Both the position numbers and the translations under genes were made by a program. Under the pieces are notes generated by a model. The model had not been told where the DNA came from. It made no database searches and saw only the letters and a program-made list of their open reading frames with translations. Positions 28,117 through 46,056 of a stretch of 64,000 bases of DNA are shown here, piece by piece (within the stretch, counting starts at the first letter, position 1; each line of letters begins with the position of its first letter). The stretch is from a virus (Duplodnaviria; Caudoviricetes). The DNA lies in the IMG/VR virus record IMGVR_UViG_3300045015_000053. One strand, 5' to 3'.

Positions 28117-28191
28117 TGTCGAGGATTGAGTGCTGGTACTCTTGTCTGCCTCTGAAGCAGAATGTCTCAGGTTCGATTCCTGACTCGACAA
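28117..28191 (+). tRNA. tRNA-Gln(CTG)
   Basis: TCTGC-CT CTG AA-GCAGA. Confidence 0.85.
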
Positions 28192-28244
28192 CTAGATTGG
28201 CTCTGAGATTTGTGTTTTTCAGAGCCGACTTGCTAAGATAGTGT

Positions 28245-28664
28245 ATGAAGAAATGCACTATTTGTCGGCAAGATAAGGCTCTTGCCGACTTCAACAAAAA
28301 GCCAAGTACAAAAGACGGATACCAGACAAAGTGTCGCAAGTGCAGTAAGCGTCTTGCAAAGGCGCGGTACTACGACAATCGCGACACTGAAATGAAAAGA
28401 ATCAAGGACCGTCAAGAAGATCTTGCTAATCGGTTTTATGAATTCAAGCGAACTTTGCGGTGCGAGTTTTGTCCTGAGACAACAGCTTGCTGTTTGGACT
28501 TCCATCACCGCGACCCGAACTCGAAGGAATTCAACATCGCATTCGCTTGTCGCCAGGGTTACTCTTGGGACAAGCTCATGGAGGAAGTGAATAAGTGTGT
28601 GGTGGCCTGTGCGAACTGTCACAGGAAGATACATCACGGTTTGATTGATTGCCCGCTCGTATAA
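28245..28664 (+). CDS. HNH endonuclease, tRNA-associated family
   Basis: CTICRQ...CRKC; CEFC...CLDFHH...KCVVACANCHRKIH; stop codon inside the next tRNA. Confidence 0.9.
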   Translation: MKKCTICRQDKALADFNKKPSTKDGYQTKCRKCSKRLAKARYYDNRDTEMKRIKDRQEDLANRFYEFKRTLRCEFCPETTACCLDFHHRDPNSKEFNIAFACRQGYSWDKLMEEVNKCVVACANCHRKIHHGLIDCPLV

Positions 28665-28720
28665 CGGTAGTACAACTGACTCTGACTCAGTTAGTGAAGG
28701 TTCGACTCCTTCGTGGGCAT
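28650..28720 (+). tRNA. tRNA-Gln(CTG)
   Basis: ACTGA-CT CTG AC-TCAGT. Confidence 0.9.
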
Positions 28721-28725
28721 CTGAC

Positions 28726-28796
28726 TGAGGAATCATCTAATGGTAGGATGCAAGGCTTTGACCCTTGTCGTGGCGGTTCGAGTCCGTCTTCCTCAA
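28726..28796 (+). tRNA. tRNA-Gln(TTG)
   Basis: CAAGG-CT TTG AC-CCTTG. Confidence 0.9.
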
Positions 28797-28798
28797 CT

Positions 28799-28856
28799 TC
28801 CGACATGTTAGGAGAGAACACGCCAAGTGCGGCAGGTTCGAGGTCTGCTGTCGGAT
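28799..28856 (+). ncRNA. 58-nt tRNA-like RNA lacking a D arm
   Basis: Acceptor TCCGACA/TGTCGGA, T-arm-like GCAGG-TTCGAGG-TCTGC, small CAC-GCCAA-GTG hairpin. Confidence 0.45.
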
Positions 28857-28858
28857 AC

Positions 28859-28929
28859 GCGGGATTCGTTTAGTGGCAAGATCCAACTTTCCCAAAGTTG
28901 AGTCGCCGGTTCGATTCCGGCATCCCGTA
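28859..28929 (+). tRNA. tRNA-Gly(CCC)
   Basis: CAACT-TT CCC AA-AGTTG. Confidence 0.9.
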
Positions 28930-28933
28930 CTGT

Positions 28934-29006
28934 GGGCCATTGGCATGTCTGGCGATTGCAGCGGACTGTTAACCCGCCGAGGTTGGTTCGATTCCAACAT
29001 GGCCCT
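28934..29006 (+). tRNA. tRNA-Asn(GTT)
   Basis: GCGGA-CT GTT AA-CCCGC. Confidence 0.85.
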
Positions 29007-29026
29007 CTCGCTCCAAGAAAGGCAAC

Positions 29027-29281
29027 ATGAGCAAGACAACGTATTACCGGCAGTGCCGACTTCAACGCGGCAATTGCCACCAAGTGAGTTGGATTCCCGA
29101 ACCGTACTGCGTCAAGGACAAAGTCCTGAAGCTCAAGAACAGTGACGGTGTTTGGGAGAACGGATGGGTGGTGAAGGGAGCCGGAACCAACCGGATCACC
29201 GACGTGCCGCACGCCGAAGGTTTGATTCGCGCACACCGGAAAGCTACTGGTGATTCGCTGCCGAAAGGTCCGAACAATTGA
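29027..29281 (+). CDS. hypothetical protein
   Basis: 84-aa ORF within tRNA cluster. Confidence 0.7.
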   Translation: MSKTTYYRQCRLQRGNCHQVSWIPEPYCVKDKVLKLKNSDGVWENGWVVKGAGTNRITDVPHAEGLIRAHRKATGDSLPKGPNN

Positions 29282-29346
29282 AACAGGGGCAGGGTTTAGC
29301 CACCCTGATCGGTCGGGAGTAGCTACCCCGCCCGTGGCCCCTACAC

Positions 29347-29417
29347 GCGGGATTCGTTAAGTGGTAAGACGCATGCTTGCCAAGCATGAGACGCCGGTTC
29401 GATTCCGGCATCCCGCA
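29347..29417 (+). tRNA. tRNA-Gly(GCC)
   Basis: CATGC-TT GCC AA-GCATG. Confidence 0.9.
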
Positions 29418-29544
29418 CTCCGATTTTGAAGGCTCTGGTTCCCCTTGTGGGTGGTAAAAAGATCGCGCATAATCATCACGTTGCTGCGATTGGGCTGTAG
29501 AAATCGAAACCCCCAATGTCTGCGTAGCAGACAGGGAGTAAGTG

Positions 29545-30720
<1,176 letters not shown>

Positions 30721-30783
30721 AGATCTAGTAGTTAAACAGGGGGAGAACTGGCCCCCACCCCGTCGCGAGACGGGGCTACTGAT

Positions 30784-30854
30784 GGCCCTATAGTCTAGTG
30801 GCAGGACGTAACCCTCTCAAGGTTAAGATTGGAGTTCGATTCTCCATAGGGTCA
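30784..30854 (+). tRNA. tRNA-Glu(CTC)
   Basis: TAACC-CT CTC AA-GGTTA. Confidence 0.9.
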
Positions 30855-30903
30855 CAGGCTCGACTACGTCCGACGCTCAGTTTTTCGGACGTTATAATTT
30901 GTC

Positions 30904-31329
30904 ATGGAGAAGACATGTTACAAGTGTAAACAATTGAAGCTTGCGGACGAGTTCTCGAAAGATACTCGGAGTAAAGATGGGTTGTGTGCGGCTTGTAGAG
31001 CTTGCCGAAGCGAGCTTAAAAAGCAGTATTACAACCGCGAACATGATGGCTTGAGGATCAAGCAGCTTGAGAAGCGTCGGAAGCTTCAGGATTGGGTTAG
31101 CACATTCAAGAAAGAGTGTAGTGTTTGCGGAGAGGATCATCCGGCTTGTTTGGATTTTCATCATGATGGCGAGAAGGAAGCAGGTATTGCCAACATGATC
31201 AATCGCAACAATATGACCGACGAAATGAGATCGAAGGTTTTGGCTGAGATCGCCAAATGCAAAGTCTTGTGTTCAAACTGTCACAGGAAGTTGCACTGGA
31301 AAGAAAGAAGAGAAGGCCCATTCGTCTAG
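30904..31329 (+). CDS. HNH endonuclease, tRNA-associated family
   Basis: CSVCG...CLDFHH...KCKVLCSNCHRKLH; TATAAT 5 nt upstream; stop inside the next tRNA. Confidence 0.9.
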   Translation: MEKTCYKCKQLKLADEFSKDTRSKDGLCAACRACRSELKKQYYNREHDGLRIKQLEKRRKLQDWVSTFKKECSVCGEDHPACLDFHHDGEKEAGIANMINRNNMTDEMRSKVLAEIAKCKVLCSNCHRKLHWKERREGPFV

Positions 31330-31385
31330 TGGTAGGACATCAGATTTTCACTCTGACAACCGGAGTTCAATTCTCCGATGGGTCA
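31315..31385 (+). tRNA. tRNA-Glu(TTC)
   Basis: TCAGA-TT TTC AC-TCTGA. Confidence 0.9.
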
Positions 31386-31441
31386 CTCAAAAGAAAGAAA
31401 CGAATCGGTATATACCCCACAGGCCGAACACAAGGGGTTTC

Positions 31442-32113
31442 ATGTTTAGTTTCAAAGAATGGTTTGACGAGTCTCTAAAGTGGGATTACCTCGCGAGCGA
31501 AGCCGAGTTGTATCCCGAAGGGTTCCGTGATTTTGCGAACCGGATGCTCGGCCGCAAAAAGAAGCCGATGGATTTGCCAGACGACGGCACGTTGCCGATG
31601 GCTGCGTCCGAAAAGAATCCGGCCGTCTATCCGGGGATGAACAATCCCAGAGACGCAATCGCAGCCACCAAAGACAAACCGGCGGTTTACCCAGGCGTGA
31701 ACAACCGAAGGGACGCGATTGCGGCGACCAAAGACAAGCCGGCCGTGTATCCGGGTGTGAACAACCCAAGAGATCCGATTGCGGCTACGAAGAACAAGCC
31801 GGCCGTGTACCCAGGCGAGAACGACGAAAAGCTCCCGATGGGACACGAGTTGAATAGCGTTATGCACGTTTACAAGCAGGTGCAGGACGGTATCACACGG
31901 ATCTGGAAGGATGACGCTGTGAGGGCGTTGTTCAAAAACGATCCGAGCGGAACGAATCAAAAGAAGGCCGACGACTTGGTGAAGTCTTGGAACGCCTTCA
32001 AAGATGTCATCAACCAACAGTCCAAGTTCCAACAAGGCAGAGGCAAACCACCAGAATTGCCGATGCCGGCTCGTCAACGGGCGGCTAACCGCGACGATCA
32101 CTGGAGGGGTTGA
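31442..32113 (+). CDS. repeat protein with capsid-targeting-like N-terminus
   Basis: MFSFKEWFDES; 20-aa repeats. Confidence 0.75.
   Translation: MFSFKEWFDESLKWDYLASEAELYPEGFRDFANRMLGRKKKPMDLPDDGTLPMAASEKNPAVYPGMNNPRDAIAATKDKPAVYPGVNNRRDAIAATKDKPAVYPGVNNPRDPIAATKNKPAVYPGENDEKLPMGHELNSVMHVYKQVQDGITRIWKDDAVRALFKNDPSGTNQKKADDLVKSWNAFKDVINQQSKFQQGRGKPPELPMPARQRAANRDDHWRG
31610..31822 (+). repeat. intragenic 60-bp (20-aa) tandem repeat, ~3.5 copies
   Basis: K(D/N)(K/N)PAVYPG(V/M)NN(P/R)RD(A/P)IAAT. Confidence 0.85.
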
Positions 32114-32204
32114 AAATCGCCGCCGCGTCGATTACGCGGCCAGTTAGAAGTCAAAAGCGACATCTGTAAAATGTCATTGCTCACTGACACGAAAGTGTCT
32201 TAAT

Positions 32205-32332
32205 GCCGGGTTAGCTCAGTGGCAGAGCGCGTAAAAGTTGACTCACCACATTTTGCCCGCAAGGGATGACTCGATGGGTTTACATTCCATTCCCAGGACG
32301 AGGTCGCGAAGTTCGATTCTTCGCTCCCGGCT
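32205..32332 (+). tRNA. tRNA-like RNA with RNA module (copy 4) in anticodon arm
   Basis: Acceptor GCCGGG/CCCGGC, normal D and T arms; insert GACTC..TTTTG-CCC-GCAA-GGG-ATG..GGGTTTACAT. Confidence 0.65.
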
Positions 32333-32338
32333 TTATCT

Positions 32339-32417
32339 GTCGTAGGAACCTAAATTCGCGTGGTGCGGAGCGGGCCTGCAAAGCTTGTGGTAAGGGGTTC
32401 GATTCCTCCCTACGACT
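32339..32417 (+). tRNA. tRNA-Cys(GCA), atypical D arm
   Basis: CGGGC-CT GCA AA-GCTTG; acceptor GTCGTAG/CTACGAC, U73. Confidence 0.65.
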
Positions 32418-32496
32418 CTTGATTCCGAAACGATCTGCAAAGCAACAGTTACGACCGTTGTTTTAGGCAGCTACTCATCGTCGGAAGTTCTCACAT

Positions 32497-32569
32497 GCCC
32501 CGTTTGCTACAATGGTGAAGCGCCTGTCTCTTAAACAGGTTACGGCCGGTTCGATCCCGGCACGGGGTA
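32497..32569 (+). tRNA. tRNA-Lys(CTT)
   Basis: CCTGT-CT CTT AA-ACAGG. Confidence 0.85.
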
Positions 32570-32601
32570 CTGATTCATGCTGTCTCTGATTTAGAAAGAT
32601 T

Positions 32602-32684
32602 GACTTGCACGCAGTAGTGGCATCTGCCTCTCGCTCTTAACGAGACGCCGTAAGGCATTCAGGGTTCAAGTCCCTGGCGAGTCA
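32602..32684 (+). tRNA. tRNA-Lys(CTT) with long variable arm
   Basis: TCTCG-CT CTT AA-CGAGA followed by GCC-GTAA-GGC hairpin. Confidence 0.7.
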
Positions 32685-32689
32685 CTGGA

Positions 32690-32865
32690 CCTGTGGTTAC
32701 TGCGAGTTCAATCTCGCAAAGATGGCGGGGACAAAAGCAGTCGTGGAAACACGGGGCTTCCCTGCGGAGGATCAGGTTGCCGACTGAAAGACATTACAGC
32801 GAGTTCAATCTCGCCCGGATGTGAAAAACCAACTGCAAAGACCACATACGCAGTGAAAGTCGGCA
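32690..32865 (+). ncRNA. unidentified structured RNA with two GCGAGTTCAATCTCGC hairpins
   Basis: Identical 16-mers at 32702 and 32799 (third copy at 26299). Confidence 0.45.
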
Positions 32866-32870
32866 CACAT

Positions 32871-32997
32871 TGTGGGGTAGCTCAGTGGTAGGGCGCGTAA
32901 AACTAGATTCGCGCCTTTTTGCCCTAACGGGATGTCCTTGCGGATTTACATTACATGTGAGGACGAGGATGTAAGGTTCGATTCCTTACCCCCACAG
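32871..32997 (+). tRNA. tRNA-like RNA with RNA module (copy 5) in anticodon arm
   Basis: Acceptor TGTGGGG/CCCCACA; GATTCGC..TTTTTG-CCC-TAAC-GGG-ATG..GCGGATT-TACAT-TAC-ATGT-GA. Confidence 0.65.
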
Positions 32998-33050
32998 CTA
33001 GTTGACGTTTGTGGCGAACCCACCGGGGTTCGCCACAACCTTTGATGAAT

Positions 33051-33262
33051 ACGTTGAGTGGCGAAACGAAGAACGCAGAGGGACCACAGAGAACGGTCGC
33101 TCGGCACGCTAACTCGCAGTACAACTTGGAGGACCGTGTCAGCGGTATCCTCTCAAGCTCTGGAGTGTCCTTGCGACACCCCCACTTCAGTGTGGGACCA
33201 TCTACGAGGCTGACCCCTGACAGGGAAGTGCAATGTGAGGTTTGAGTCCTCACCTCGACGTA
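33051..33262 (+). ncRNA. ~210-nt RNA with Leu-type tRNA ends and a large internal insert
   Basis: ACGTTGAG/CTCGACGT pairing, D-arm-like GCG..CGC, T arm GTGAGG-TTTGAGT-CCTCAC. Confidence 0.55.
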
Positions 33263-33266
33263 TAAC

Positions 33267-33339
33267 GGGCCATGAGTTCGGTTAGTAGAACATCCCCCTG
33301 TCACGGGGAAGGTTGCGGGTGCGACTCCCGTATGGCTCG
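33267..33339 (+). tRNA. tRNA-Asp(GTC)
   Basis: TCCCC-CT GTC AC-GGGGA. Confidence 0.9.
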
Positions 33340-33367
33340 CTTTTGTTTTTGTTGATATAATCGGGTC

Positions 33368-33994
33368 ATGCCATACAAAGACCCGCTTCGACAAAAAGAA
33401 GCCCAACGTCAACACTATCTCGCCAACAAGCAAAATTACATTTGCAGTCGGCGGAAAAATCGTGATGAACGAGATGTTTGGCTCGAAGAGTACAAGCGTG
33501 ACAAGAAATGCGTCAGATGCGGCGAACCCGATTCGAGATGTTTCGATTTCCACCATCCCGACGCCTCGAAAAAGCTGTTTCAAATAACCGAAGCTGTTAA
33601 GCAAGGTTATGCTCTTGGCAGGATCAAGGCTGAGATTGCGAAGTGCGAGATTCTCTGCGCCAACTGTCACCGCCTTGAACATTACCAAGAAAGAACGCCT
33701 GAAGATTACGCGAGGTCTTGGGTCGGCGAAAACGTTCTTTGGTTGCGTCAGCAGAAGTCCATGAGAGTCTGCATGAAATGCCAGACCGAAGATTGGAGAT
33801 TGCTAGACTTCCATCATCGTGACGGTGTCGAAAAGAAACAAACTCTTTCAAAGATGGCCGGAAGTGGCTGTTCGATTCAGGCTCTTTTGGAAGAGATCGC
33901 GAAGTGTGACGTGTACTGTGCCAACTGCCACAGGAAGCATCACAACAACAACAAATGGAAAGAAGCGTCTGTAAGAAAAGGCTCTATGGTGTAG
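33368..33994 (+). CDS. HNH endonuclease with two tandem HNH domains
   Basis: Two C..C...DFHH...KC.(IL/VY)CANCHR units; stop inside the next tRNA. Confidence 0.9.
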   Translation: MPYKDPLRQKEAQRQHYLANKQNYICSRRKNRDERDVWLEEYKRDKKCVRCGEPDSRCFDFHHPDASKKLFQITEAVKQGYALGRIKAEIAKCEILCANCHRLEHYQERTPEDYARSWVGENVLWLRQQKSMRVCMKCQTEDWRLLDFHHRDGVEKKQTLSKMAGSGCSIQALLEEIAKCDVYCANCHRKHHNNNKWKEASVRKGSMV

Positions 33995-34052
33995 TGGTCT
34001 GCACGCTTGGTTGTCAACCAATAAGAGTGGGGTTCGATTCCCCCTAGAGCCG
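33980..34052 (+). tRNA. tRNA-Asp(GTC)
   Basis: TTGG-TT GTC AA-CCAA; acceptor GGCTCTA/TAGAGCC. Confidence 0.85.
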
Positions 34053-34055
34053 CTC

Positions 34056-34300
34056 TGGTTTGTCGGTATCAGTCTGCTTCGGCAGTGTCACCGACTTGAA
34101 CGTAGACGATGGTGCCTGTCAGGTTCGTCTAGCCGGTAACTGGGCTGCGTCGTGAAATAATCGACTATGGTCAAGGTGTGGTCCGACGAGGATAATCCAC
34201 CCGTTCGCGAACGGGCAGACAAGTGAATCGGCTTTTCATGCGACGGTGTGAAGAACCGAGGAACAGCCATACTGATATGGGGTTCGATTCCCCTGCGGTC
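34056..34300 (+). ncRNA. candidate structured RNA ending in a T-arm-like hairpin
   Basis: Hairpins CTGC-TTCG-GCAG, CCCG-TTCGCGAA-CGGG, GGGG-TTCGATT-CCCC; no 5' acceptor partner found. Confidence 0.35.
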
Positions 34301-34315
34301 CTCCTAAATACCCGC

Positions 34316-36255: not shown

Positions 36256-36262
36256 GGCCACC

Positions 36263-38173: not shown

Positions 38174-38176
38174 CTT

Positions 38177-38425
38177 ATGAGAAAGAAAGAACAGACCGTG
38201 AAACAAGAACGCAAAGCGGTGCGAAAGCAACGCAGAGGCTGGTTCATCGTGAAGGCACAACACGACTGTGGCTGCTGCCACAGCGAGATGTACTTCAAAA
38301 GTGAAGCTTCGGCCAAGAAAGCTTGGTCGGCCGCTGGACTTCAGTTGTCGGCGAAGATTACCGACGACAAGGGAACCGTTCACGAAGGTGTGGATACGTT
38401 CTACGGGGTAGTCAGGATTTCTTGA
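38177..38425 (+). CDS. hypothetical protein
   Basis: 82-aa ORF directly after tRNA. Confidence 0.6.
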   Translation: MRKKEQTVKQERKAVRKQRRGWFIVKAQHDCGCCHSEMYFKSEASAKKAWSAAGLQLSAKITDDKGTVHEGVDTFYGVVRIS

Positions 38426-38810: not shown

Positions 38811-38848
38811 CGTTGCCTCCCGTAGTAGTTGTTTGCAAGTATCTAGAA

Positions 38849-38923
38849 GGCCGATTGATCGTAGTAGTGGTAACTCGCTTGTTTTACACGCAAGAGTCGG
38901 GGGTTCGATTCCCTCATCGGCCA
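38849..38923 (+). tRNA. tRNA-Val(TAC)
   Basis: CTTGT-TT TAC AC-GCAAG. Confidence 0.8.
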
Positions 38924-38935
38924 CTGTTAGTTGAT

Positions 38936-39006
38936 AGATCCGTGTAGGTGGTCCTACAGCGAAACTCCAAATCTCGCCAAACCGGGTTCGATTCCTGGCG
39001 GATCTG
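38936..39006 (+). tRNA. tRNA-Trp(CCA), atypical D arm
   Basis: Loop CT CCA AA; acceptor AGATCCG/CGGATCT. Confidence 0.7.
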
Positions 39007-39503
39007 CTTCAAATTCTTCGATTAGTTTGGAGTCTTCATGACTAAGATAAGTCATGAAGACTAAACATTGCAAACGATGTTCGTTGGACTTGCCAACGTC
39101 ATCATTCTCGAAGAACTGCCGTAAATCTGATGGCCTTCAAATCAGTTGTAAAAGCTGTATGAAGGCAATGAACGCCAAACACTATGTCCAGTACAAAGAC
39201 AAGCAGTTGGCGATCAACCGAGAAAACAAACGCATCATCCGCGAAAAGGTTCGATTTCTGAAAGAGGCGAACCCTTGCGGTTGTGGCGAGTCTGCTGTGT
39301 GCTGTTTGGACTTCCACCATATCGGGAAGAAGTCTGACACGATTTCAAGGATGTTGTCCAACACATACAGTTGGGAGCGACTGGAAGCTGAACTCAGGAA
39401 ATGTTGTGTGTTGTGCGCCAACTGCCATCGCAAGCATCATGCGGGCGAAAAATTGAAGTTCAAATGCGTTCCGATTTTGTTGTGATTCCTGGCGGATCTG
39501 CTT
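38990..39503 (+). mobile_element. HNH cassette bounded by a 20-bp direct repeat of the tRNA-Trp 3' end
   Basis: GATTCCTGGCGGATCTGCTT at 38990-39009 and 39484-39503. Confidence 0.75.
39054..39485 (+). CDS. HNH endonuclease, tRNA-associated family
   Basis: CKRC...CKSC; CLDFHH...KCCVLCANCHRKHH. Confidence 0.9.
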   Translation: MKTKHCKRCSLDLPTSSFSKNCRKSDGLQISCKSCMKAMNAKHYVQYKDKQLAINRENKRIIREKVRFLKEANPCGCGESAVCCLDFHHIGKKSDTISRMLSNTYSWERLEAELRKCCVLCANCHRKHHAGEKLKFKCVPILL

Positions 39504-39504
39504 G

Positions 39505-40221
39505 ATGATCAATCCCAACAACCCGTACACCAACATGCAAAAAAGGGTGTACGGCTCGCAGTCGCCGTGGTGGTCGGTTCATCGACGCGATCCCGTTGTC
39601 GGGACGTTCGACGCCCACAACAAACACTCCGACTACGAGTTGTTGTTCAAAGGAATCGACACCAAAGAACTGGTCGCACTCGACTTCGGATGTGGTCCGG
39701 GTCGAAACATCGTGAAGTACGCCGGCCGCTTCCGTCGTATCGACGGCGTGGATCTCGACTACGCCAACCTGCTCAACGCGAAGAGTTGGGCCGATCACAA
39801 CGGGTTGAACGGGTTCAAACTGTACCTGTGCAACGGTGTGGATCTCGGCGGCATCGGAAATGACGAGTACGATCTGGTGATGACGACGATCACCCTTCAA
39901 CACATCTGCGTACACGAGATACGCCAGAACTACTTCCGAGAGTTCTGTCGGGTGCTGAAGCCGGGCGGTCGGTTGTCGTTCCAAATGGGGTTCGGGTCGC
40001 CGTCGCCGAACGCGGTGAGCTATTACGCGAACCACTACGAGGCGACCGCGACGAACAGGGGTTGCGACACCGAGGTGTCCGACCCGGATCATCTAAAAGA
40101 AGATCTGGGCAAGGCCGGTTTCGATGGGTTCGAGTACGATCTGCGGCCACCGGGTCCGGGTGACTATCACCCCCAGTGGATCTTCGTGCGGGCGAGAAGT
40201 CGCGCTCAGGAGGATAGATAG
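39505..40221 (+). CDS. class I SAM-dependent methyltransferase
   Basis: ALDFGCGPGRN, GVDL, YDLVMTTITLQHI, RVLKPGG. Confidence 0.9.
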   Translation: MINPNNPYTNMQKRVYGSQSPWWSVHRRDPVVGTFDAHNKHSDYELLFKGIDTKELVALDFGCGPGRNIVKYAGRFRRIDGVDLDYANLLNAKSWADHNGLNGFKLYLCNGVDLGGIGNDEYDLVMTTITLQHICVHEIRQNYFREFCRVLKPGGRLSFQMGFGSPSPNAVSYYANHYEATATNRGCDTEVSDPDHLKEDLGKAGFDGFEYDLRPPGPGDYHPQWIFVRARSRAQEDR

Positions 40222-40572
40222 GTGTGAACGATTCACGCCGAGCTAAGGAGGCTCATGAGCGAAAAGGACTTCAAAAACAAGCGTGCGCGTAAGGCACTGC
40301 GGGATTTGTGAGAGGTACAGTGAGCGGCTGTCGTTGTTCGAGGCCGAGTTGATGGTGTTGGCGATCAGGGCGGGCAGCATGGTGGCGGCTCTGAAAGAAA
40401 TTGGGATTGCAAAAAGCAGGATAAAGGGCATACTGAGAGCGGCCAGGGAACTGGACGAAAAACTCAGAGACATGTGAACCTTCGGATGGACGGCAGCGTC
40501 CATCCAGTACAGAGATCCGGCGAGAAGCAACAGGATGAAGGGCGTGACGCTCGCTTGTGATTATGAGTTAAC

Positions 40573-40643
40573 GGGGTCGTGGTGAAGTGGTATCATGCGA
40601 CAATGGCATTGTTGAGGTAGGGGTTCGATTCCCCTCGGCTCCA
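40573..40643 (+). tRNA. tRNA-Ala(GGC)
   Basis: G3:U70 pair; CGACA-AT GGC AT-TGTTG. Confidence 0.85.
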
Positions 40644-40654
40644 CTAAAGGTGTG

Positions 40655-40894
40655 ATGATGACGGACGAAGAACTTTGGGACGCTCTCGACGGCTTGTTCG
40701 CCTATGACATGGGCTGTCGCTCGTCGGGCATCAAAGATGATAAGCTTCGAGATCGCGTCAAGGCTGAATTGGAGAAAGACAAGCTGAGACTGTCGCGCAT
40801 CGTCAGAGATCGAATGCTGACGGAAAACCGACTGGCTCAAGGATACGGTCTGGAAGACGTAAAAGAGTTCATTGATTGGTCAGACCGCCTGTAG
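40655..40894 (+). CDS. hypothetical protein
   Basis: AAAGGT RBS. Confidence 0.65.
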   Translation: MMTDEELWDALDGLFAYDMGCRSSGIKDDKLRDRVKAELEKDKLRLSRIVRDRMLTENRLAQGYGLEDVKEFIDWSDRL

Positions 40895-40904
40895 GAAGAA
40901 AGTC

Positions 40905-41270
40905 ATGAGCGTCAGAAGTCGCGCGGCGAACAAGGCAAAGGCTACGAAGCTCGGCATCTCGCTCCAAAAGATCGAGAAGCTCCACCTACCCTACAGCGGG
41001 TGCGGTGACGCGGCCGAGTGGCACAGTCTTCTGGGCGAGTTCCTCGCGACCTACAAGGACGCGAAGCCACGGGTCGAAATCGATGTTGACGGGTACGATG
41101 GGTATCCAGACAACGTGGTGGTTTCGGCCGTCGTGGACAAGACCGATCAGGAACTGATCAACGAGATCAAGTCGAAGGAAGACCTGATCGCCGCTCAGAA
41201 GAAGAAGATCGAAGACAAGGAACGGGCTGAACTCGAACGGCTTGAGGCCAAGTACAGGAAGAAGTCATGA
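40905..41270 (+). CDS. hypothetical protein
   Basis: AGGAAG RBS; C-terminal coiled coil. Confidence 0.7.
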   Translation: MSVRSRAANKAKATKLGISLQKIEKLHLPYSGCGDAAEWHSLLGEFLATYKDAKPRVEIDVDGYDGYPDNVVVSAVVDKTDQELINEIKSKEDLIAAQKKKIEDKERAELERLEAKYRKKS

Positions 41271-41500
41271 TCACCGACGACGACCGCGCCTACGTCGCAA
41301 AGAAGATCGGCGAGTGGGTTGCCACCCTAGAAGCCGAGGGTTTGGCCGACAAGCCGATCATGTCTTGTGCGTGCGGGCAGTGTCCGAATGGGGTCGTCAC
41401 GCCGCGCAGCGTTCTCAGGGACATTGAGAACCGGACGGAAGAGGGCGAGCGGTTCGTTGAGAGTTGGGTGGACTTGAACGTCCGAGGTATTCTGAAATGA
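41267..41500 (+). CDS. hypothetical protein
   Basis: ATGA coupling. Confidence 0.65.
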   Translation: MITDDDRAYVAKKIGEWVATLEAEGLADKPIMSCACGQCPNGVVTPRSVLRDIENRTEEGERFVESWVDLNVRGILK

Positions 41501-41709
41501 CGCCTCCTTTCCCGAATTTCATCGCCGTGGTGCTTGGTCTGTCGATGGCGTCCTGTTTTTTCTTGGGTGGCAACATCCGAAAGTGGATGTTGGGGCATAA
41601 ATTGGATGTGTGGGAAAAGGCCGGGATGCTGTTGCACCCGGTGGTGATTGTGGCGGGTGTCGTGAACGTGTTCTTGGCACTTGGGAATAAGGGGTCACTA
41701 GCGGACTAG
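41497..41709 (+). CDS. small membrane protein
   Basis: Two hydrophobic segments; stop lies inside tRNA-Ala(CGC). Confidence 0.55.
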   Translation: MTPPFPNFIAVVLGLSMASCFFLGGNIRKWMLGHKLDVWEKAGMLLHPVVIVAGVVNVFLALGNKGSLAD

Positions 41710-41758
41710 CTCTGTCGTTCGCAACGACGGATTCGGGGTTCGACTCCCCGTGGCTCCA
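41691..41758 (+). tRNA. tRNA-Ala(CGC), shortened D arm
   Basis: G3:U70; loop TT CGC AA; 68 nt. Confidence 0.75.
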
Positions 41759-41814
41759 CTGCACGCTTCTTGCTGAAATGCGGATAAATCGACGTGCGTT
41801 AAAAATATCGGCCT

Positions 41815-41885
41815 GGGGTGTTGGTATAGTGGTATTACGTCTGCTTTGCAAGCAGAAGACCGGGGTCCGATTCCCCGACGCTCCA
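41815..41885 (+). tRNA. tRNA-Ala(TGC)
   Basis: TCTGC-TT TGC AA-GCAGA; G3:U70. Confidence 0.85.
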
Positions 41886-41887
41886 CT

Positions 41888-41947
41888 GCGAAGATGACAG
41901 TTGGGATTACATCGCCAATGTGAAATCTCAGCGACTTTTTGCTTCGC
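41888..41947 (+). ncRNA. tRNA-associated RNA module, copy 6
   Basis: GCGAAG-ATG..GGGATT-ACAT..ATGT-GA-AATCTC..TTTTTG-CTTCGC between two tRNAs. Confidence 0.65.
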
Positions 41948-41951
41948 GATT

Positions 41952-42022
41952 GCCTTCATAGTTTAGTGGCAGAACACGATCTTGGTAAGATTGAAACCTG
42001 AGTTCGATTCTCAGTGAAGGCT
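41952..42022 (+). tRNA. tRNA-Thr(GGT)
   Basis: CGATC-TT GGT AA-GATTG. Confidence 0.9.
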
Positions 42023-42035
42023 CTTGGAGACACCG

Positions 42036-42350
42036 ATGTCATCCGAAGAAGATGAGGTTGAAGGTGGTCCGTGTCACACGGTGACGGCGGAAGACATGAT
42101 CGAGATACGCCGGCGCATGTGCGGCGGTGATGTCCTCAAGCTAGTCAACCACTACTTGATTTCATACGGCACGCCGTACTCGGCAGAATTGGTTGTGAAC
42201 GACACCAGTCTCGTCTGCGTGACGAAGGACGTGTCGGAAGGCCAAAGCACCGAGTGCTACAACGCCGAAGAGTTGTTGAAGTCACTGGAACGCTGTTCTT
42301 CGACGGAAGACGTGCGAGTGGTTTTGGAAGAAAGCGGTCTGGCTCTGTGA
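42036..42350 (+). CDS. hypothetical protein
   Basis: GGAG RBS. Confidence 0.6.
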   Translation: MSSEEDEVEGGPCHTVTAEDMIEIRRRMCGGDVLKLVNHYLISYGTPYSAELVVNDTSLVCVTKDVSEGQSTECYNAEELLKSLERCSSTEDVRVVLEESGLAL

Positions 42351-42360
42351 ATGGGGGAAC

Positions 42361-42717
42361 TTGAGGACGTTTAACGAGTGGGTTCTGCTGCAAGAAGATA
42401 CGATCTGGGAGAAGCACGGTCGCGATCTCCCGTCCATCTTTAAGTCAACCCATTATGCTCTGCCGACCTATCAACAACTGGAAGAGTTCAGCGACTATCC
42501 CGAACTGACGGCAGAAGAGATCGTTCAAGGTTTCGGGTATACGATTGTGGGTCGTGGCGTGAGCAGTCCCGACAACTGCAAGAAGATCGTTGAGTCGATT
42601 CGGTTGTTGGTGGAGCGATACCCCGACCGGCTGGAATACAAAGAGGCGTTGACTAAGGCCGAAGAAGAGGCCAAGATCAAACTCGAAAAGTGGCGCAGGG
42701 GGGTACGTTTCCCGTAA
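42361..42717 (+). CDS. hypothetical protein with capsid-targeting-like N-terminus
   Basis: TTG start; MRTFNEWVLLQE. Confidence 0.7.
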   Translation: MRTFNEWVLLQEDTIWEKHGRDLPSIFKSTHYALPTYQQLEEFSDYPELTAEEIVQGFGYTIVGRGVSSPDNCKKIVESIRLLVERYPDRLEYKEALTKAEEEAKIKLEKWRRGVRFP

Positions 42718-42730
42718 TGGAGGGATTGTC

Positions 42731-43162
42731 ATGACGCTTCCGACCGGCAAGAACAAGACGAAGCTCGTCCGCGAGGGTGAGGAAAAACGGCTCGCACAAG
42801 AAAGTGAGCAGAAGCGGCAAGAGACGGAAAAGGCTGCGGCCGAGCAGCGAAAGAAGGATGACGAGTTCTCCAAGCTCGTCACGAGCTTGAAGGAACGGAT
42901 CGAAGCAACCGTTTACCGCGCGATCAACGCCGGTCATCGGGAAACCGAGATCATCATCCCGAAGGACTACGCCGAGCCTCGATACCTCGAAGCGTGGACG
43001 AAGGCGGTGGTCGGGCTGCGGCGCAGTTACGGCAAAGAATACAAGTTCGATTTGCACGAACACCGCCTATACTGTGACAACAGGTTCGAGGCCGCGAACG
43101 TGGACGGCGTCAGCTACCAAGAGTGGACCGAAGACGCTCACAGGTTGAAGGTCACTTGGTGA
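42731..43162 (+). CDS. hypothetical protein
   Basis: GGAGG RBS. Confidence 0.7.
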   Translation: MTLPTGKNKTKLVREGEEKRLAQESEQKRQETEKAAAEQRKKDDEFSKLVTSLKERIEATVYRAINAGHRETEIIIPKDYAEPRYLEAWTKAVVGLRRSYGKEYKFDLHEHRLYCDNRFEAANVDGVSYQEWTEDAHRLKVTW

Positions 43163-43204
43163 TTTTGCGGTGAAGTTTGAAAACGGGTCTATAATGACCT
43201 TGAT

Positions 43205-43278
43205 GGTGTGCGTGGTGTAGTGGCTTTGCACGTTTCCCTGTGAAGGAAAAGGTGGCGGATCGTAACCGCTCGCACACC
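43205..43278 (+). tRNA. tRNA-His(GTG)
   Basis: G-1:C73 8-bp acceptor; TTTCC-CT GTG AA-GGAAA; atypical T loop ATCGTAA. Confidence 0.8.
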
Positions 43279-43345
43279 CTAGTCGAGATGACAGACAGGA
43301 GTACATTCACTACTCGTTCTCTTGTCAACTTATTGCTCGGCTTAT

Positions 43346-43413
43346 GCCCCGCCCTGCGGTCAGGTTCGGAGTCTACGAAACTCTGAAGTTCCGTTCGACT
43401 CGGAAGCGGGGTA
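43346..43413 (+). tRNA. tRNA-Arg(ACG), compact
   Basis: GGAGT-CT ACG AA-ACTCT; acceptor GCCCCGC/GCGGGGT. Confidence 0.7.
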
Positions 43414-43416
43414 CTT

Positions 43417-43487
43417 GCCCGGTCCAGCGGTTTACCGGCACTGAGCTTGCGAAGCTCGGTTGCGTGGTTCGACTCCACGACAGGGTA
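43417..43487 (+). tRNA. tRNA-Arg(GCG)
   Basis: TGAGC-TT GCG AA-GCTCG. Confidence 0.7.
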
Positions 43488-43491
43488 CTCG

Positions 43492-43553
43492 GTGAGATGA
43501 ACGTAGGGATTACATTGGTTATGTGAAATCTCTACAACCTTTTTGCTCATCAC
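43492..43553 (+). ncRNA. tRNA-associated RNA module, copy 7
   Basis: GTGAG-ATG..GTAGGGATT-ACAT..ATGT-GA-AATCTCTAC..TTTTTG-CTCAT. Confidence 0.65.
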
Positions 43554-43574
43554 ATTTTCTTCCGAAAGGCGCGA

Positions 43575-43853
43575 ATGGCGACGAGTGGCGACCCTGAGAT
43601 CTGGTTGTTGCAACGCATTGATGAGTTGCAGGACAAACCTAATTGGCCCGCGACCCACAAGAACATCTGGCAGGGCAGTTATGATGTGTGGTTCTCGGAA
43701 CAAGATCGGATCGACGCCTACGAGATTCCAAAAAGACGGATGGCGAGCGCTGTCAAGCAGGATCTCATTCAGAGTAGCATCAAGGAAGTCGGGAAGTACA
43801 AGTTCGAGGTCTGGAGTTTGACCGAGAAGGGCAAGCAGTTGATTGGCAAGTGA
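43575..43853 (+). CDS. hypothetical protein
   Basis: 92-aa ORF. Confidence 0.65.
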   Translation: MATSGDPEIWLLQRIDELQDKPNWPATHKNIWQGSYDVWFSEQDRIDAYEIPKRRMASAVKQDLIQSSIKEVGKYKFEVWSLTEKGKQLIGK

Positions 43854-43866
43854 TGTGGGCAATAAC

Positions 43867-44058
43867 ATGAGCAAGACGATTTTGCCGTGGCCGATGATTT
43901 TGGGGCTAACCGCCGGAATCATGGTCGGAAATTGTTGCTTGAAATTGCTTGAAGACTGGCCTCGCGACAAAGGGTTGTTGTTCGGTTTGGTTTGCGGCCT
44001 CGTGAACGTTGTTTTGTGCGGTTCGTTCCGTGTAATTGAATGGATGGTTCGGCGTTAA
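43867..44058 (+). CDS. small membrane protein
   Basis: Two hydrophobic segments. Confidence 0.55.
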   Translation: MSKTILPWPMILGLTAGIMVGNCCLKLLEDWPRDKGLLFGLVCGLVNVVLCGSFRVIEWMVRR

Positions 44059-44132
44059 CGGCCCATAGTGTAGTGGTTTCTGCACGAGAGTCTGATAAAC
44101 TCTAAGTCGAAGTTCGATTCTTCGTGGGCCGA
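44059..44132 (+). tRNA. tRNA-Ile(GAT)
   Basis: AGAGT-CT GAT AA-ACTCT. Confidence 0.9.
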
Positions 44133-44141
44133 CTGATTGAT

Positions 44142-44211
44142 GGTGTACGACTCCGGTGAGTAGTTGTGGTTGTGAACTATGACAAGGTGGGTTCGACCCC
44201 CATCGTACACC
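44142..44211 (+). tRNA. tRNA-His(GTG), short D arm
   Basis: GGTGTACG/CGTACACC; loop TT GTG AA. Confidence 0.75.
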
Positions 44212-44214
44212 CTT

Positions 44215-44292
44215 GCGAGATGACCTTGTTGGGGATTACATTCCTTTTCAGAATGTGCCGAAAGGCACAATCTCCGACGTTCTTTTGCTCGC
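44215..44292 (+). ncRNA. tRNA-associated RNA module, copy 8
   Basis: GCGAG-ATG..GGGATT-ACATT..AATGT[GTGCCGAAAGGCAC]AATCTC..T-run-G-CTCGC. Confidence 0.65.
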
Positions 44293-44298
44293 TTTATT

Positions 44299-44370
44299 CG
44301 GCCTGTCGTTCAATGGTTAGGACAGTGGTCTGATAAACCGCAAACGGTGGTTCGACTCCACCCAGGCCGA
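44299..44370 (+). tRNA. tRNA-Ile(GAT)
   Basis: GTGGT-CT GAT AA-ACCGC. Confidence 0.9.
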
Positions 44371-44422
44371 CTTCTGTCTGATAATTTTTCCAATTTATCA
44401 GACAACATGGCTATAATACGTC

Positions 44423-44890
44423 ATGGAGAAATACTGCTCGACATGCAAGCAGACCAAGCTTTGCTCTGCATTCAACAAGAACCGCTATCGCAAAGACGGC
44501 CTGCAAGTCAGGTGCAGAGATTGCGACAAAGCCAGATCAAAACAGAGGTATCAGGGCGAGTACAAAGACTACTACATCGCCAAGAGCCAAGAGACGCTGG
44601 CTGCACGACGCCAGTGGTTCGAGGATTACAAGAAAGACAAATGCTGTTCACGGTGTGGCGACCTTCGCTGGTATGTGTTGGAGTTTCACCACCGTGACGG
44701 CGTTGACAAGGAAGACGAAATCTCTCGAATGGTCTTCAACAAGAGATCGGTCGATAAGATCATGCTGGAGATAGCCAAGTGCGATCTGGTGTGCGCCAAC
44801 TGCCACCGTGAATTGCACCACATGCAAAAACAGACGGGCGGTTCGACCCCGCCCTTCCGTACTGACGGGTTTCCACCCAGTAAAAACTAG
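44423..44890 (+). CDS. HNH endonuclease, tRNA-associated family
   Basis: CSRCG...LEFHH...KCDLVCANCHRELH; TATAAT 5 nt upstream. Confidence 0.9.
   Translation: MEKYCSTCKQTKLCSAFNKNRYRKDGLQVRCRDCDKARSKQRYQGEYKDYYIAKSQETLAARRQWFEDYKKDKCCSRCGDLRWYVLEFHHRDGVDKEDEISRMVFNKRSVDKIMLEIAKCDLVCANCHRELHHMQKQTGGSTPPFRTDGFPPSKN
44833..44861 (+). pseudogene. orphan tRNA 3' half inside the HNH gene end
   Basis: GGCGG-TTCGACC-CCGCC-CTTCCGT-A-CT. Confidence 0.55.
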
Positions 44891-44997
44891 CAGGGTATCG
44901 GCTAGTTTCCCTGTCTACCCATAACCTCTGGTACGCTTGCGTGCCGGAAGGCTGAAACAACAGTGTACTGGTCGCTTTGCGGCCGGTGGGGACAAAA

Positions 44998-45070
44998 GGC
45001 GGCGTAGCCAAGTGGTAAGGCACCTACCCGCAAGGTAGGAGATTCGGGGGTTCGAGTCCTTCCGCCGCCT
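44998..45070 (+). tRNA. tRNA-Cys(GCA)
   Basis: CCTAC-CC GCA AG-GTAGG; U73. Confidence 0.8.
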
Positions 45071-45084
45071 CTGAGGATTTCAAG

Positions 45085-45312
45085 ATGAAAGACTTCGATG
45101 AAACCGTCGCGCGGTTCAAGAATCAAGAACTCGACGTAGACGATTGGAACTTTGTCGTCCACTACGAAGGTGCCGGCGACTACGCGGCCTACATCATGGG
45201 CGAAGGCTCTCAGCAGTGCCTCGCCTACAAGACGGGGTTCGCGAGCAAGGAAGTAGTCATCGAGTTCTTCAAGTCCCTCGGCGTCAGCCGGGTACTCGAA
45301 GGGCTTGGGTAA
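45085..45312 (+). CDS. hypothetical protein
   Basis: GAGG RBS. Confidence 0.65.
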   Translation: MKDFDETVARFKNQELDVDDWNFVVHYEGAGDYAAYIMGEGSQQCLAYKTGFASKEVVIEFFKSLGVSRVLEGLG

Positions 45313-45383
45313 CAGGGGTAATTGTTACGGTAGCATTCTACTTTTGGAAAGTAGCAGCGTGGGTTCGACTCCCGCACCCCTGA
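45313..45383 (+). tRNA. tRNA-Pro(TGG)
   Basis: CTACT-TT TGG AA-AGTAG. Confidence 0.85.
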
Positions 45384-45401
45384 CTCGGAAACGCCTATGA
45401 C

Positions 45402-45602
45402 ATGAGGGCCGAGCAGAGAACCTTCACCGCCGAACTTCTGGCTTGGGGTTCTCTCCTGCTGGCTCTGGGCTTTCTGGTGGTCCCCATCTTGATGGGCGAA
45501 CCACGGCACATGTCGAACCCGATCTGCGAAAACGGGTTCATCGTGTTCGGCTTCGCCTGTTGCGCGTTTTTCTTGGTCGTGTTCGTGAATCCTGACAAAT
45601 GA
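45402..45602 (+). CDS. small membrane protein
   Basis: Two hydrophobic segments. Confidence 0.6.
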   Translation: MRAEQRTFTAELLAWGSLLLALGFLVVPILMGEPRHMSNPICENGFIVFGFACCAFFLVVFVNPDK

Positions 45603-45603
45603 C

Positions 45604-46001
45604 CGGGGACAAGTGTTCCGCTTCTGCTATAATTTGGGTATGAGCAGAGCAGAATACCGTCGCGAGTATCGTCGCCGTCGCAACTTGACCGACCCGAACT
45701 GGCGCAAAACAGAAAACGCAGATCAACTGAAACGGATTGAGCGAAATCGCCAGTTCGTAAATGAATTCAAGAAAAACAAAGGTTGCAAGTATTGCCCGGA
45801 GGCGGCTGTTTGTTGCCTCGACCTCCATCACCGAGATGGTGAAGAGAAAGACAAGGCGGTTTCCTACATGGTCAAAATGGGCTATGGTTTGGAACGCCTA
45901 AACGAAGAGATTCAGAAGTGTGACGTGGTGTGTGCAAACTGTCATCGCAAGTTGCACGCTGGTCACGTTCTGAATAGTAGATAACGGGGACAAGTGTTCC
46001 G
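45604..46001 (+). mobile_element. HNH cassette bounded by a 17-bp direct repeat of the tRNA-Pro 5' end
   Basis: CGGGGACAAGTGTTCCG at 45604-45620 and 45985-46001. Confidence 0.75.
45640..45984 (+). CDS. HNH endonuclease, tRNA-associated family
   Basis: GCKYC...CLDLHH...KCDVVCANCHRKLH; TATAAT 6 nt upstream. Confidence 0.9.
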   Translation: MSRAEYRREYRRRRNLTDPNWRKTENADQLKRIERNRQFVNEFKKNKGCKYCPEAAVCCLDLHHRDGEEKDKAVSYMVKMGYGLERLNEEIQKCDVVCANCHRKLHAGHVLNSR

Positions 46002-46056
46002 GTACGCACCCGTGCTTTGGGAGCATGGAGAGCGGGTTCGATTCCCGCGTCCCCGA
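45985..46056 (+). tRNA. tRNA-Pro(TGG)
   Basis: CGTGC-TT TGG GA-GCATG. Confidence 0.8.

Follow-up and report, generated by a model that had tools for sequence, protein, structure and literature searches.

The 64,000-nucleotide (nt) stretch of viral DNA analysed here, referred to as the window, corresponds to bases 41123-105122 of the 188,369-bp IMG/VR record IMGVR_UViG_3300045015_000053 and was found to carry six HNH endonuclease genes, here designated HNH1 to HNH6, within an extensive array of tRNA genes. It seems likely, at a probability of about 70%, that these genes are the cores of self-contained mobile cassettes of about 0.4-0.65 kb, of the free-standing homing endonuclease kind and specialised on tRNA borders. 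This reading is carried chiefly by the empty counterparts of the six sites in related phages and by the broken tRNA pieces that lie beside several of the genes.

CheckV gave the record a completeness of 37%, and it is therefore a fragment of a phage of ~0.5 Mb. ARAGORN called 44 tRNAs in the window and 50 in the whole record, all on the plus strand. Rfam contributed three further tRNAs and left several odd-shaped ones unscored. The array is ordered by amino acid, and 15 of its 43 adjacent pairs share the same amino acid. An initial annotation, made from the letters of this DNA, had placed HNH1 between two Gln(CTG) genes, HNH2 between Glu(CTC) and Glu(TTC), HNH3 between two Asp(GTC) genes and HNH5 after Ile(GAT), its end running across an orphan tRNA 3' half; ARAGORN and the list of open reading frames (ORFs) agreed with these placements (Table 1).

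Occupied and empty sites in related phages

Relatives were located by exact-protein look-ups of the genes neighbouring the HNH sites. The closest of them, designated R1, is represented by contigs L105, L099 and L101 from one other lake sample and by L100 from a further sample, which cover the array co-linearly with the window at a local identity of ~75% to 100%. The HNH-less alleles that the initial annotation had proposed to look for in related phages were present in R1, where none of the six window sites holds an intact HNH gene, nor does any other place in the compared stretch, and where the empty junctions match the footprints to the base. Other searches added little: megablast of the 18-kb region against GenBank phages returned a single 54-nt tRNA match, an IMG/VR search with a 450-amino acid (aa) neighbour protein gave no close relative, and the exact 26-nt Trp pattern was not found there.

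At the Gln site of R1, where HNH1 is absent, only 5 nt lie between the two Gln(CTG) genes. The two Asp genes of L099 are likewise separated by 5 nt, and the 634-bp insert of the window falls exactly within that spacer. At the Trp site, the 20-bp repeat of the Trp 3' end reported initially proved exact (38990-39009 and 39484-39503), and in L099 and L100, which lack HNH4, the methyltransferase ATG follows immediately after the end of tRNA-Trp. This empty site is the one predicted by removing the cassette together with one copy of the repeat, and the insertion footprint is thus exact. At the Ile site, the second Ile(GAT) of L101, L102 and L103 is followed by the same spacer as stands after the orphan half in the window, and HNH5 is absent. 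At the Pro site of L101, tRNA-Pro(TGG) comes directly after the stop codon of a 66-aa ORF, where the window has a 17-nt orphan, and HNH6 is absent. The 17-bp Pro(TGG) repeat described initially was also exact (45604-45620 and 45985-46001), but the other Pro(TGG) said to lie nearby is separated from HNH6 by the 66-aa ORF.

The Glu site was found to be a hot spot. The gap between the EF-Tu gene and Glu(TTC), 30721-31314 in the window, has three unrelated occupants across the relatives, namely Glu(CTC) with HNH2 in the window, a 114-aa ORF in R1 (L105 11177-11601), and a conserved 75-85-aa ORF ending in DAGCC in L106 (11174-11604), L108 and L097.

The reverse case was encountered at Val(TAC), which is intact in the window. 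In L097 this site consists of an 18-nt 5' orphan, a TATAAT box, a gene for a 121-aa HNH protein and a different Val(TAC), while in L099 a 5' orphan is followed by a decayed HNH tail, then by the different Val(TAC), and last by a 3' orphan of 26 nt that matches the end of the window's Val gene in every base. As the six sites are empty in R1 and the Val site is empty in the window, gain and loss occurred at exact tRNA borders in both directions. Additional members of the family were detected in L097, between two Lys(CTT) genes, after Gly(GCC) and before Val(TAC), in L104 before the second Pro(TGG), and at another place in L106. Taken together, these comparisons support the view that the HNH genes are free-standing insertions tied to tRNA gene borders. 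Presence and absence at identical sites in co-linear relatives, one of the marks of free-standing homing endonuclease genes, was thus observed here.

Of note, Gln(CTG) and Gln(TTG) of R1 are separated by 140 nt (L105 9080-9218) in which there is a piece resembling a T-arm plus acceptor, possibly a further tRNA remnant or else a tRNA that was not called. Two other explanations of the genes were rejected: a terminase-associated HNH is ruled out by the multiple copies, all within the tRNA array, and tRNA introns by the complete flanking tRNAs and the existing empty sites.

The HNH family and the anatomy of the cassettes

The six ORFs are paralogs sharing 32-38% identity, and all of them matched PHROG 2255/3106/35854 ('HNH endonuclease') with E values from 1e-23 to 3e-44. 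No HNH model of Pfam or NCBIfam matched the six proteins at E below 0.1, the Pfam scan (E up to 0.1) gave no NUMOD model for any of them either, and no GIY-YIG family was among their Pfam, NCBIfam and PHROG matches. Profile comparison with the PDB gave weak matches only, to the HNH regions of McrA and LtrA (E 0.015-0.03). Fourteen positions are invariant in the six copies (C73, C76, H87, H88, K94, E114, K117, C118, C122, N124, C125, H126, R127 and H130), forming a core C-x2-C ... HH ... KC-x3-C-x-NCHR-x2-H, and the CxxC...HH...CxxCH core is invariant in 36 homologs. The motif given in the initial annotation therefore held in its core, but not in every detail: HNH2 has CSNCHR in place of CANCHR, and HNH3 contains two tandem HNH domains. 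HNH3 and HNH6 lack the N-terminal zinc ribbon, and the HNH3 gene has an internal 39-nt repeat.

An AlphaFold2 model of HNH5 had a predicted local distance difference test (pLDDT) score of 92.6 overall, low only in the tail. In this model an N-terminal four-Cys zinc ribbon and a long helix precede a C-terminal domain, in which strand 86-90, strand 120-124 and helix 125-137 are predicted to surround the catalytic His, the Asn, the metal-binding His and the CxxC pairs. Residues 1-40 resembled the zinc ribbon of the beta-beta-alpha-Me enzyme Hpy99I (Z 5.7, root mean square deviation (rmsd) 1.6 over 40), and the C-terminal part resembled, weakly, Gme HNH (Z 3.6, rmsd 3.3 over 70; VIA-align), Cas9 HNH and T5 SciA. 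Foldseek returned nothing at E <=0.001 for the HNH5 model, and its weak list was mostly of HNH proteins (T5 SciA, Hpy99I, Cap5, McrA and Cas9 HNH).

Three more copies of the family are present in the same record, outside the window. At G000:C1:132076-132783, outside the window, a 235-aa family member was noted whose lead, TATAATACGTC-ATG, is identical to that of HNH5 and which has a C-terminal extension of ~140 aa beyond the HNH domain.

The TATAAT or TAAGAT box noticed initially was confirmed 5-6 nt upstream of the ATG in all six ORFs, none of which has a Shine-Dalgarno sequence. The pattern box-N5-6-ATG occurs 10 times in the 188-kb record, and seven of these occurrences are at the starts of family genes (binomial P=4e-18). 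From a box so placed, transcription would start at or beside the ATG and give a leaderless message. Hairpins accompany several of the boxes. At HNH4 a hairpin of -21.1 kcal/mol (z -6.6) holds the box in its loop and the ATG in its 3' arm, at HNH5 the box is in the loop of a 6-bp stem containing the ATG, and a 12-bp hairpin (about 28197-28228, z -3.5) lies upstream of the HNH1 box.

The claim that the stop codons of HNH1, HNH2 and HNH3 lie inside the downstream tRNA was borne out: each reading frame enters the tRNA at its first base and stops (TAA/TAG) at D-loop positions 13-15. A typical cassette would thus consist of a short hairpin, its own -10 box and an ORF for a zinc ribbon and an HNH domain, usually with no stop codon of its own, so that the reading frame would run into the neighbouring tRNA and terminate on conserved tRNA bases. 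Because the stop codon is inside the tRNA, processing by RNase P would sever the message ahead of it. The hairpins would mask the ATG in read-through transcripts, and transcripts from the cassette's own box would be made without the 5' arm. RNase P cutting and masking of the ATG would together be expected to keep nuclease levels low.

At least 410 relatives of the family are present in IMG/VR, and the loci of the best 80 were surveyed. tRNAs were found within 2.5 kb in 50 of these loci. In 21 cases the ORF ends -37 to +10 nt from the start of a same-strand tRNA, with one mode at -10, where the stop falls on tRNA positions 8-10, and another at -15, where it falls on positions 13-15, whereas the gap upstream of the ORF, which contains the promoter, is looser (about 25-80 nt). 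Among cultured phages the family is carried by those of Mycobacterium, Streptomyces, Gordonia, Pseudomonas, Klebsiella, Erwinia and Pectobacterium. The ORF overlaps an annotated tRNA in Erwinia phage Hena1 and Pectobacterium phage Wc4, and cluster C and Myrna-like mycobacteriophages have members of the same family at 36-39% identity. A phylogeny, suggested initially as a check, was obtained, but 4 of its 68 inner branches were starred and the six window copies are scattered over it without forming a clade; from so poorly resolved a tree neither donor nor order of events is readable.

The survey bears on an unlikely alternative, according to which the HNH proteins have no tRNA-directed specificity and their genes merely persist in a dispensable array of short spacers, the orphan pieces having arisen by illegitimate recombination at shared D-loop and T-loop motifs. 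Such recombination would fit the breakpoints, which lie at D-loop positions 17-21 or within the T-arm, where tRNAs are most strongly conserved and their sequence recurs most often, as well as the three unrelated occupants of the gap after EF-Tu. The type of the downstream tRNA also changes often on the tree (18 changes, against 20.9 +/- 1.2 with shuffled labels) and is conserved only between very close relatives. The ORF-tRNA junction is however too precise and too recurrent for such an origin, its two modes being found in unrelated phages, and in every footprint (Trp, Ile, Pro and Val) the broken piece has the identity of the adjacent intact tRNA. The 30 of 80 loci without a nearby tRNA, by which part of the family resides elsewhere, are compatible with either explanation.

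Table 1 Features of the HNH sites in the window, with positions counted from its first base.
Feature	Position	Strand	Evidence and remarks
tRNA-Gln(CTG), 76-nt, odd-shaped	28117..28192	+	ARAGORN; Rfam 39 bits; upstream of HNH1; no ortholog at that position in R1, which has a 72-nt Gln(CTG)
-10-like TAAGAT, HNH1	28234..28239	+	5 nt before ATG
HNH1, 139 aa, N-terminal zinc ribbon and C-terminal HNH	28245..28664	+	PHROG 2255 E 8e-31; last 15 nt = tRNA positions 1-15
tRNA-Gln(CTG), 72 nt	28650..28721	+	ARAGORN, Rfam; D-loop TAA = HNH1 stop; 83% identical to L105:9008-9079
tRNA-Glu(CTC)	30784..30855	+	ARAGORN, Rfam; upstream of HNH2; missing in L105, after EF-Tu in L106 and L108
-10-like TATAAT, HNH2	30893..30898	+	5 nt before ATG
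HNH2, 141 aa	30904..31329	+	PHROG 2255 E 3e-26; stop = TAG at tRNA positions 13-15
tRNA-Glu(TTC)	31315..31386	+	overlapped by HNH2 end; 99% identical to L105:11602-11673, sole difference in T-loop
tRNA-Asp(GTC)	33267..33340	+	upstream of HNH3; 97% identical to L099:1715-1788
634-bp insertion relative to Asp-Asp empty site	33342..33975	+	T-rich lead, TATAAT 33356-33361, most of HNH3; bounds from L099 1700-1885
HNH3, 208 aa	33368..33994	+	PHROG 3106 E 3e-44, two stretches; stop = TAG in next tRNA
tRNA-Asp(GTC)	33980..34053	+	overlapped by HNH3 end; 86% to L099:1794-1868, 80% to L097:14384-14458
tRNA-Val(TAC), intact, un-invaded	38849..38923	+	Rfam 38 bits; cloverleaf acceptor pairing; not called by ARAGORN
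tRNA-Trp(CCA)	38936..39007	+	ARAGORN; upstream of HNH4; 94% identical to L099/L100, D-stem changes compensatory, 3' half identical
Hairpin with TAAGAT box 39043-39048	39031..39062	+	-21.1 kcal/mol, z -6.6
HNH4, 143 aa	39054..39485	+	PHROG 2255 E 2e-25; TGA stop completed by first two bases of duplicated Trp end
Orphan Trp end, last 18 nt of tRNA-Trp + 2 nt	39484..39503	+	exact 20-bp repeat of 38990-39009; abuts methyltransferase start
tRNA-Ile(GAT), intact	44299..44371	+	ARAGORN, Rfam; upstream of HNH5; like the L102 allele there, L101, L103 and L104 with a different allele
-10-like TATAAT, HNH5	44412..44417	+	5 nt before ATG; in loop of 6-bp stem
HNH5, 155 aa	44423..44890	+	PHROG 2255 E 9e-33; last ~17 codons = orphan tRNA piece and old spacer
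Orphan Ile(GAT) 3' half (T-arm and acceptor strand), other allele	44836..44862	+	24/26 identical to 3' end of L102 Ile 235-308; inside HNH5 ORF
tRNA-Pro(TGG), upstream copy	45313..45384	+	ARAGORN; 86% identical to L101:2768-2839
66-aa ORF between upstream Pro(TGG) and HNH6	45402-45602		ORF list
Orphan 17-nt 5' end of tRNA-Pro(TGG)	45604..45620	+	exact repeat of 45985-46001; supplies -35-like GGGACA
-10 TATAAT with TG extension, HNH6	45628..45633	+	6 nt before ATG
HNH6, 114 aa	45640..45984	+	PHROG 2255 E 1e-23; own TAA ends one base before tRNA
tRNA-Pro(TGG), intact, allele accompanying HNH	45985..46057	+	anticodon arm = that of intact Pro after HNH in L104

tRNA alleles and isoacceptor redundancy

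The initial annotation had each nuclease bring with it a re-coded copy of the tRNA gene into which it homes. Such a replacement is partly supported: Pro, Ile and Val are the sites at which the comparisons point to it, and Glu and Trp are sites at which they do not. L104 carries at its Pro site 59 nt that derive from the Pro(TGG) allele resident in L101, followed by an HNH gene and then by an intact Pro(TGG) of another allele. The anticodon arm of this intact tRNA is the same as that of the window tRNA at 45985, which differs from the L101 resident. The orphan 3' half at the Ile site derives from an Ile(GAT) allele other than the intact Ile beside it, and the orphan Val(TAC) pieces of L097 and L099 belong to the window's allele, while the intact Val beside the HNH sequence is a different one. 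The Asp and Gln tRNAs that lend their D-loop stops share 86% (Asp) and 83% (Gln) identity with the R1 alleles, the surrounding sequence being 90-100% identical.

The following course of events is proposed. On co-infection with a cassette-free phage, the nuclease would cut that phage's matching tRNA locus, and the cassette would be copied into it when the break is repaired from the carrier. A first entry that interrupted a tRNA gene would leave a piece of the old gene and, beside the nuclease gene, a complete tRNA of the same identity, as at Trp, Ile and Pro in the window and at Val in the relatives; at some sites this complete tRNA is a different allele.

Several observations weigh against this reading. 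Glu(TTC) is 99% identical in the carrier and the HNH-less form, the 3' half of Trp is identical in both, and the divergence of 39 tRNAs from R1 (0-43%) was not linked to HNH adjacency (Mann-Whitney p=0.48). As the divergence covers this range with or without an adjacent HNH, tRNA replacement also occurs without a resident HNH, or the HNH was lost afterwards. HNH6 and the Pro-site HNH of L104 share 45% identity, and the latter shares 42% with HNH2; being no nearer to one than to the other, it does not allow a linkage between nuclease lineage and tRNA allele to be proved. With paralogs at 32-38% identity and an unresolved tree, orthology of same-site cassettes across phages is likewise not demonstrable. 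Exact orphan pieces are rare elsewhere, in 1 of about 25 tRNA-abutting IMG/VR loci; the only clear case in the 80 loci, besides T-loop chance matches, is the exact 15-nt 5' orphan of L076. A -35 element was found at HNH6 only among the six genes, as judged by a sigma-70 consensus that may not be the host's; in the sigma-70 scan both hexamers occurred only there, and promoter-like sites were fewer than in shuffles. Last, no polymorphism was seen within one population, as the window's phage is identical in every sample containing it. It was found base-for-base in several lake samples, and L093-L096, being 100% identical to the window, are uninformative in this respect. Contigs of four lake-water DNA runs placed on 27500-47000 gave no supported HNH-less joint of the same population; they contained identical fragments and, besides these, only joints whose sides of 21-22 nt are cross-matches between tRNAs.

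The bodies of Ile(GAT) at two fixed positions were observed to be swapped for divergent alleles among close relatives, with the spacers conserved up to the tRNA borders (window 44059-44371, L101 1367-1700, L102 235-579, L103 944-1289); no HNH is present in those relatives.

These Ile swaps would be expected if the nucleases were domesticated and retained by the phage for the breaks that they make in the array, by which its tRNAs would be amplified, exchanged and diversified, for example against host tRNA-cutting defences. A precedent exists in phage T6, in which escape from Septu is achieved through amplification of a tRNA-Tyr segment by SegB; an association of SegB with tRNAs across phages has also been published (PMC13096335), and all six window ORFs are intact, each with a retained promoter. 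This explanation is nevertheless improbable. The array of the closest relative is equally rich and redundant without an intact HNH, tandem segmental amplifications around the cassettes are absent, and the HNH remnant decaying in L099 is what a selfish element would leave after fixation.

The initial annotation had further held that the nucleases explain the isoacceptor redundancy of the array. Taken strictly, this means that every cassette would place another, resistant tRNA next to its target, which appears very improbable. Four of the six cassettes do lie between tRNAs for the same amino acid, and Lys(CTT)-HNH-Lys(CTT) in L097 and Pro-HNH-Pro in L104 have the same arrangement. Given that 15 of 43 adjacent pairs share an amino acid regardless, four of six is not clearly beyond chance (P=0.10), and of the 18 loci flanked on both sides by tRNAs among the best 80 in IMG/VR, only about 3 have the same amino acid on the two sides, contrary to the expectation that same-type flanks recur across homologs. 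Moreover, HNH-less R1 has its array in the same amino-acid order, with the pair of Gln(CTG) genes as well as the pair of Asp genes, and Glu(CTC) and Glu(TTC) of L106 and L108 have a small non-HNH ORF between them, so that neither same-type flanks nor redundancy were caused by the cassettes. The flanking same-anticodon tRNAs are 57-72% identical, the ordinary likeness of one tRNA to another, and are thus no fresh duplicates; and as the old gene is destroyed at the footprints rather than retained, the tRNA count does not rise. The tempting inference is thereby corrected, for the duplicated isoacceptors predate the cassettes and do not depend on them.

Codon usage and escape from host defences are the usual explanations of phage tRNA arrays, and cassettes of the kind proposed here would be a third force. 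By entering and leaving tRNA borders, sometimes breaking a tRNA and leaving an intact gene of the same identity, they would offer a concrete mechanism for mosaic, allele-swapping arrays and a natural example of a selfish element able to occupy an RNA gene without an intron. A more speculative extension, put forward tentatively, is that HNH-plus-tRNA cassettes behave like gene drives, overwriting tRNAs with re-coded alleles of the same identity, and that in huge phages they might be the main engine by which tRNA bodies are swapped at fixed positions. The resulting allele diversity might also protect against host nucleases that cut tRNAs or tRNA genes, and the stop codon in the tRNA might act as a governor coupling nuclease dosage to tRNA processing.

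Other features of the array were recorded. A full-length EF-Tu gene with three Pfam domains lies within it (29542-30720); its phage relatives are 82-99% identical, while the nearest named cellular proteins (~72%) are from Gemmataceae/Planctomycetota, a hint, from protein likeness, of a possible host lineage. Between the two Ile(GAT) genes there is a compact 70-nt tRNA-His(GTG)-like gene (44142-44211), which ARAGORN called in L101, L102 and L103 but not in the window and whose Rfam match is only weak, to tRNA-Sec. Two tRNA-like genes were found by Rfam only, at 26603-26674 and 46618-46705 (30.5 and 37.7 bits), the second with a long extra arm. The Glu and Gln tRNAs are of two styles, odd-shaped ones of 73-76 nt with low or no Rfam score (27037-27247, 27839-27914, 28117-28192) and standard ones of 72 nt (28650-28797, 30784-31386), and this doubling also exists in relatives. 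The intact tRNA-Val(TAC) overlaps the 5' end of a minus-strand DUF1003 ORF call (38412-38924). The gene directly after the Trp/HNH4 site encodes a class I SAM (S-adenosylmethionine) methyltransferase (39502-40221) with hundreds of homologs at 50-60% identity, many of them on metagenomic contigs of 0.2-0.7 Mb.

Comparison with known tRNA-region nucleases

That free-standing homing endonucleases occur in phage tRNA regions, as the initial annotation had stated, is established for SegB of phage T4. This GIY-YIG enzyme recognises a T-loop motif, cleaves tRNA genes at their 3' ends and takes the neighbouring tRNAs along when it homes; its stop codon abuts tRNA-Arg, a hairpin masks its start, and brakes on expression by tRNA processing and by hairpins have been proposed for it and for other T4 endonucleases (PMC2330249). 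Like SegB of T4 and T6, the window nucleases are encoded within a phage tRNA array and are absent from close relatives. They share with T4 SegB an ORF end at the 5' end of the next tRNA, such that tRNA processing would remove the stop, and a start-masking hairpin. The T4 enzyme has a conserved tRNA-gene motif as its target and its neighbouring tRNA genes are co-inherited, and the window cassettes may be likened to it in both respects. Unlike SegB, the window proteins combine a zinc ribbon with an HNH domain and have no GIY-YIG signal. One genome holds six to nine of their genes, every one of which has a separate -10 box at its ATG, and next to several of them tRNA fragments lie beside a complete tRNA, a feature for which no description was found for SegB.

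Fungal mitochondrial mobile ORFs offer a parallel for such pieces. There, an endonuclease gene lands in a gene and carries a substitute for the end that it displaces, the old part becoming an unused remnant. Those elements are mostly of the LAGLIDADG or GIY-YIG type and have protein-coding targets, in contrast to the tRNA genes of a phage considered here. The literature search turned up no paper describing orphan pieces of a tRNA together with a complete tRNA of the same identity next to an HNH gene.

HNH genes are reported to be the commonest coding sequences in the tRNA arrays of mycobacteriophages and Mycobacterium, and a role in the diversity of the tRNA repertoire has been suggested; in the portions of these papers that were consulted, the association is reported, but the anatomy of the junctions is not described, nor are empty sites, orphan pieces of tRNAs or replacement alleles (PMC5966550; PMC6409571; Pope et al. 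2014, as cited in PMC5966550).

Also close in setting are hegC, hegD and hegA of phage T5, tRNA-region HNH endonucleases of the F-Tfl group of enzymes according to Akulenko et al. 2004, as quoted in PMC2330249. Like hegC and hegD, the window genes are situated inside a tRNA cluster. The annotation of T5 has hegD overlapping the 5' end of a pseudogene tRNA-Gln(CUG) (tRNA-Gln2), next to tRNA-Gln(UUG), and hegC overlapping the 5' end of tRNA-Ser(GGA) (tRNA-Ser2), next to tRNA-Ser(UGA). The T5 enzymes are annotated as HNH plus NUMOD4 (IPR002711, IPR010902), whereas the window proteins match PHROG 2255/3106 instead of either Pfam domain, and the T5 proteins are larger, about 190 aa against 114-155 aa for five of the six window proteins and 208 aa for the two-domain HNH3. 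Thus, the window cassettes are a variant of the SegB and T5 hegC/hegD kind of tRNA-region nuclease, presumably SegB-like in their working without belonging to the SegB-like GIY-YIG enzymes. The stop codon lent by a tRNA recurs among them and is shared with T4 SegB and T5 hegC/hegD, which points to a general throttling of a dangerous nuclease through RNase P processing.

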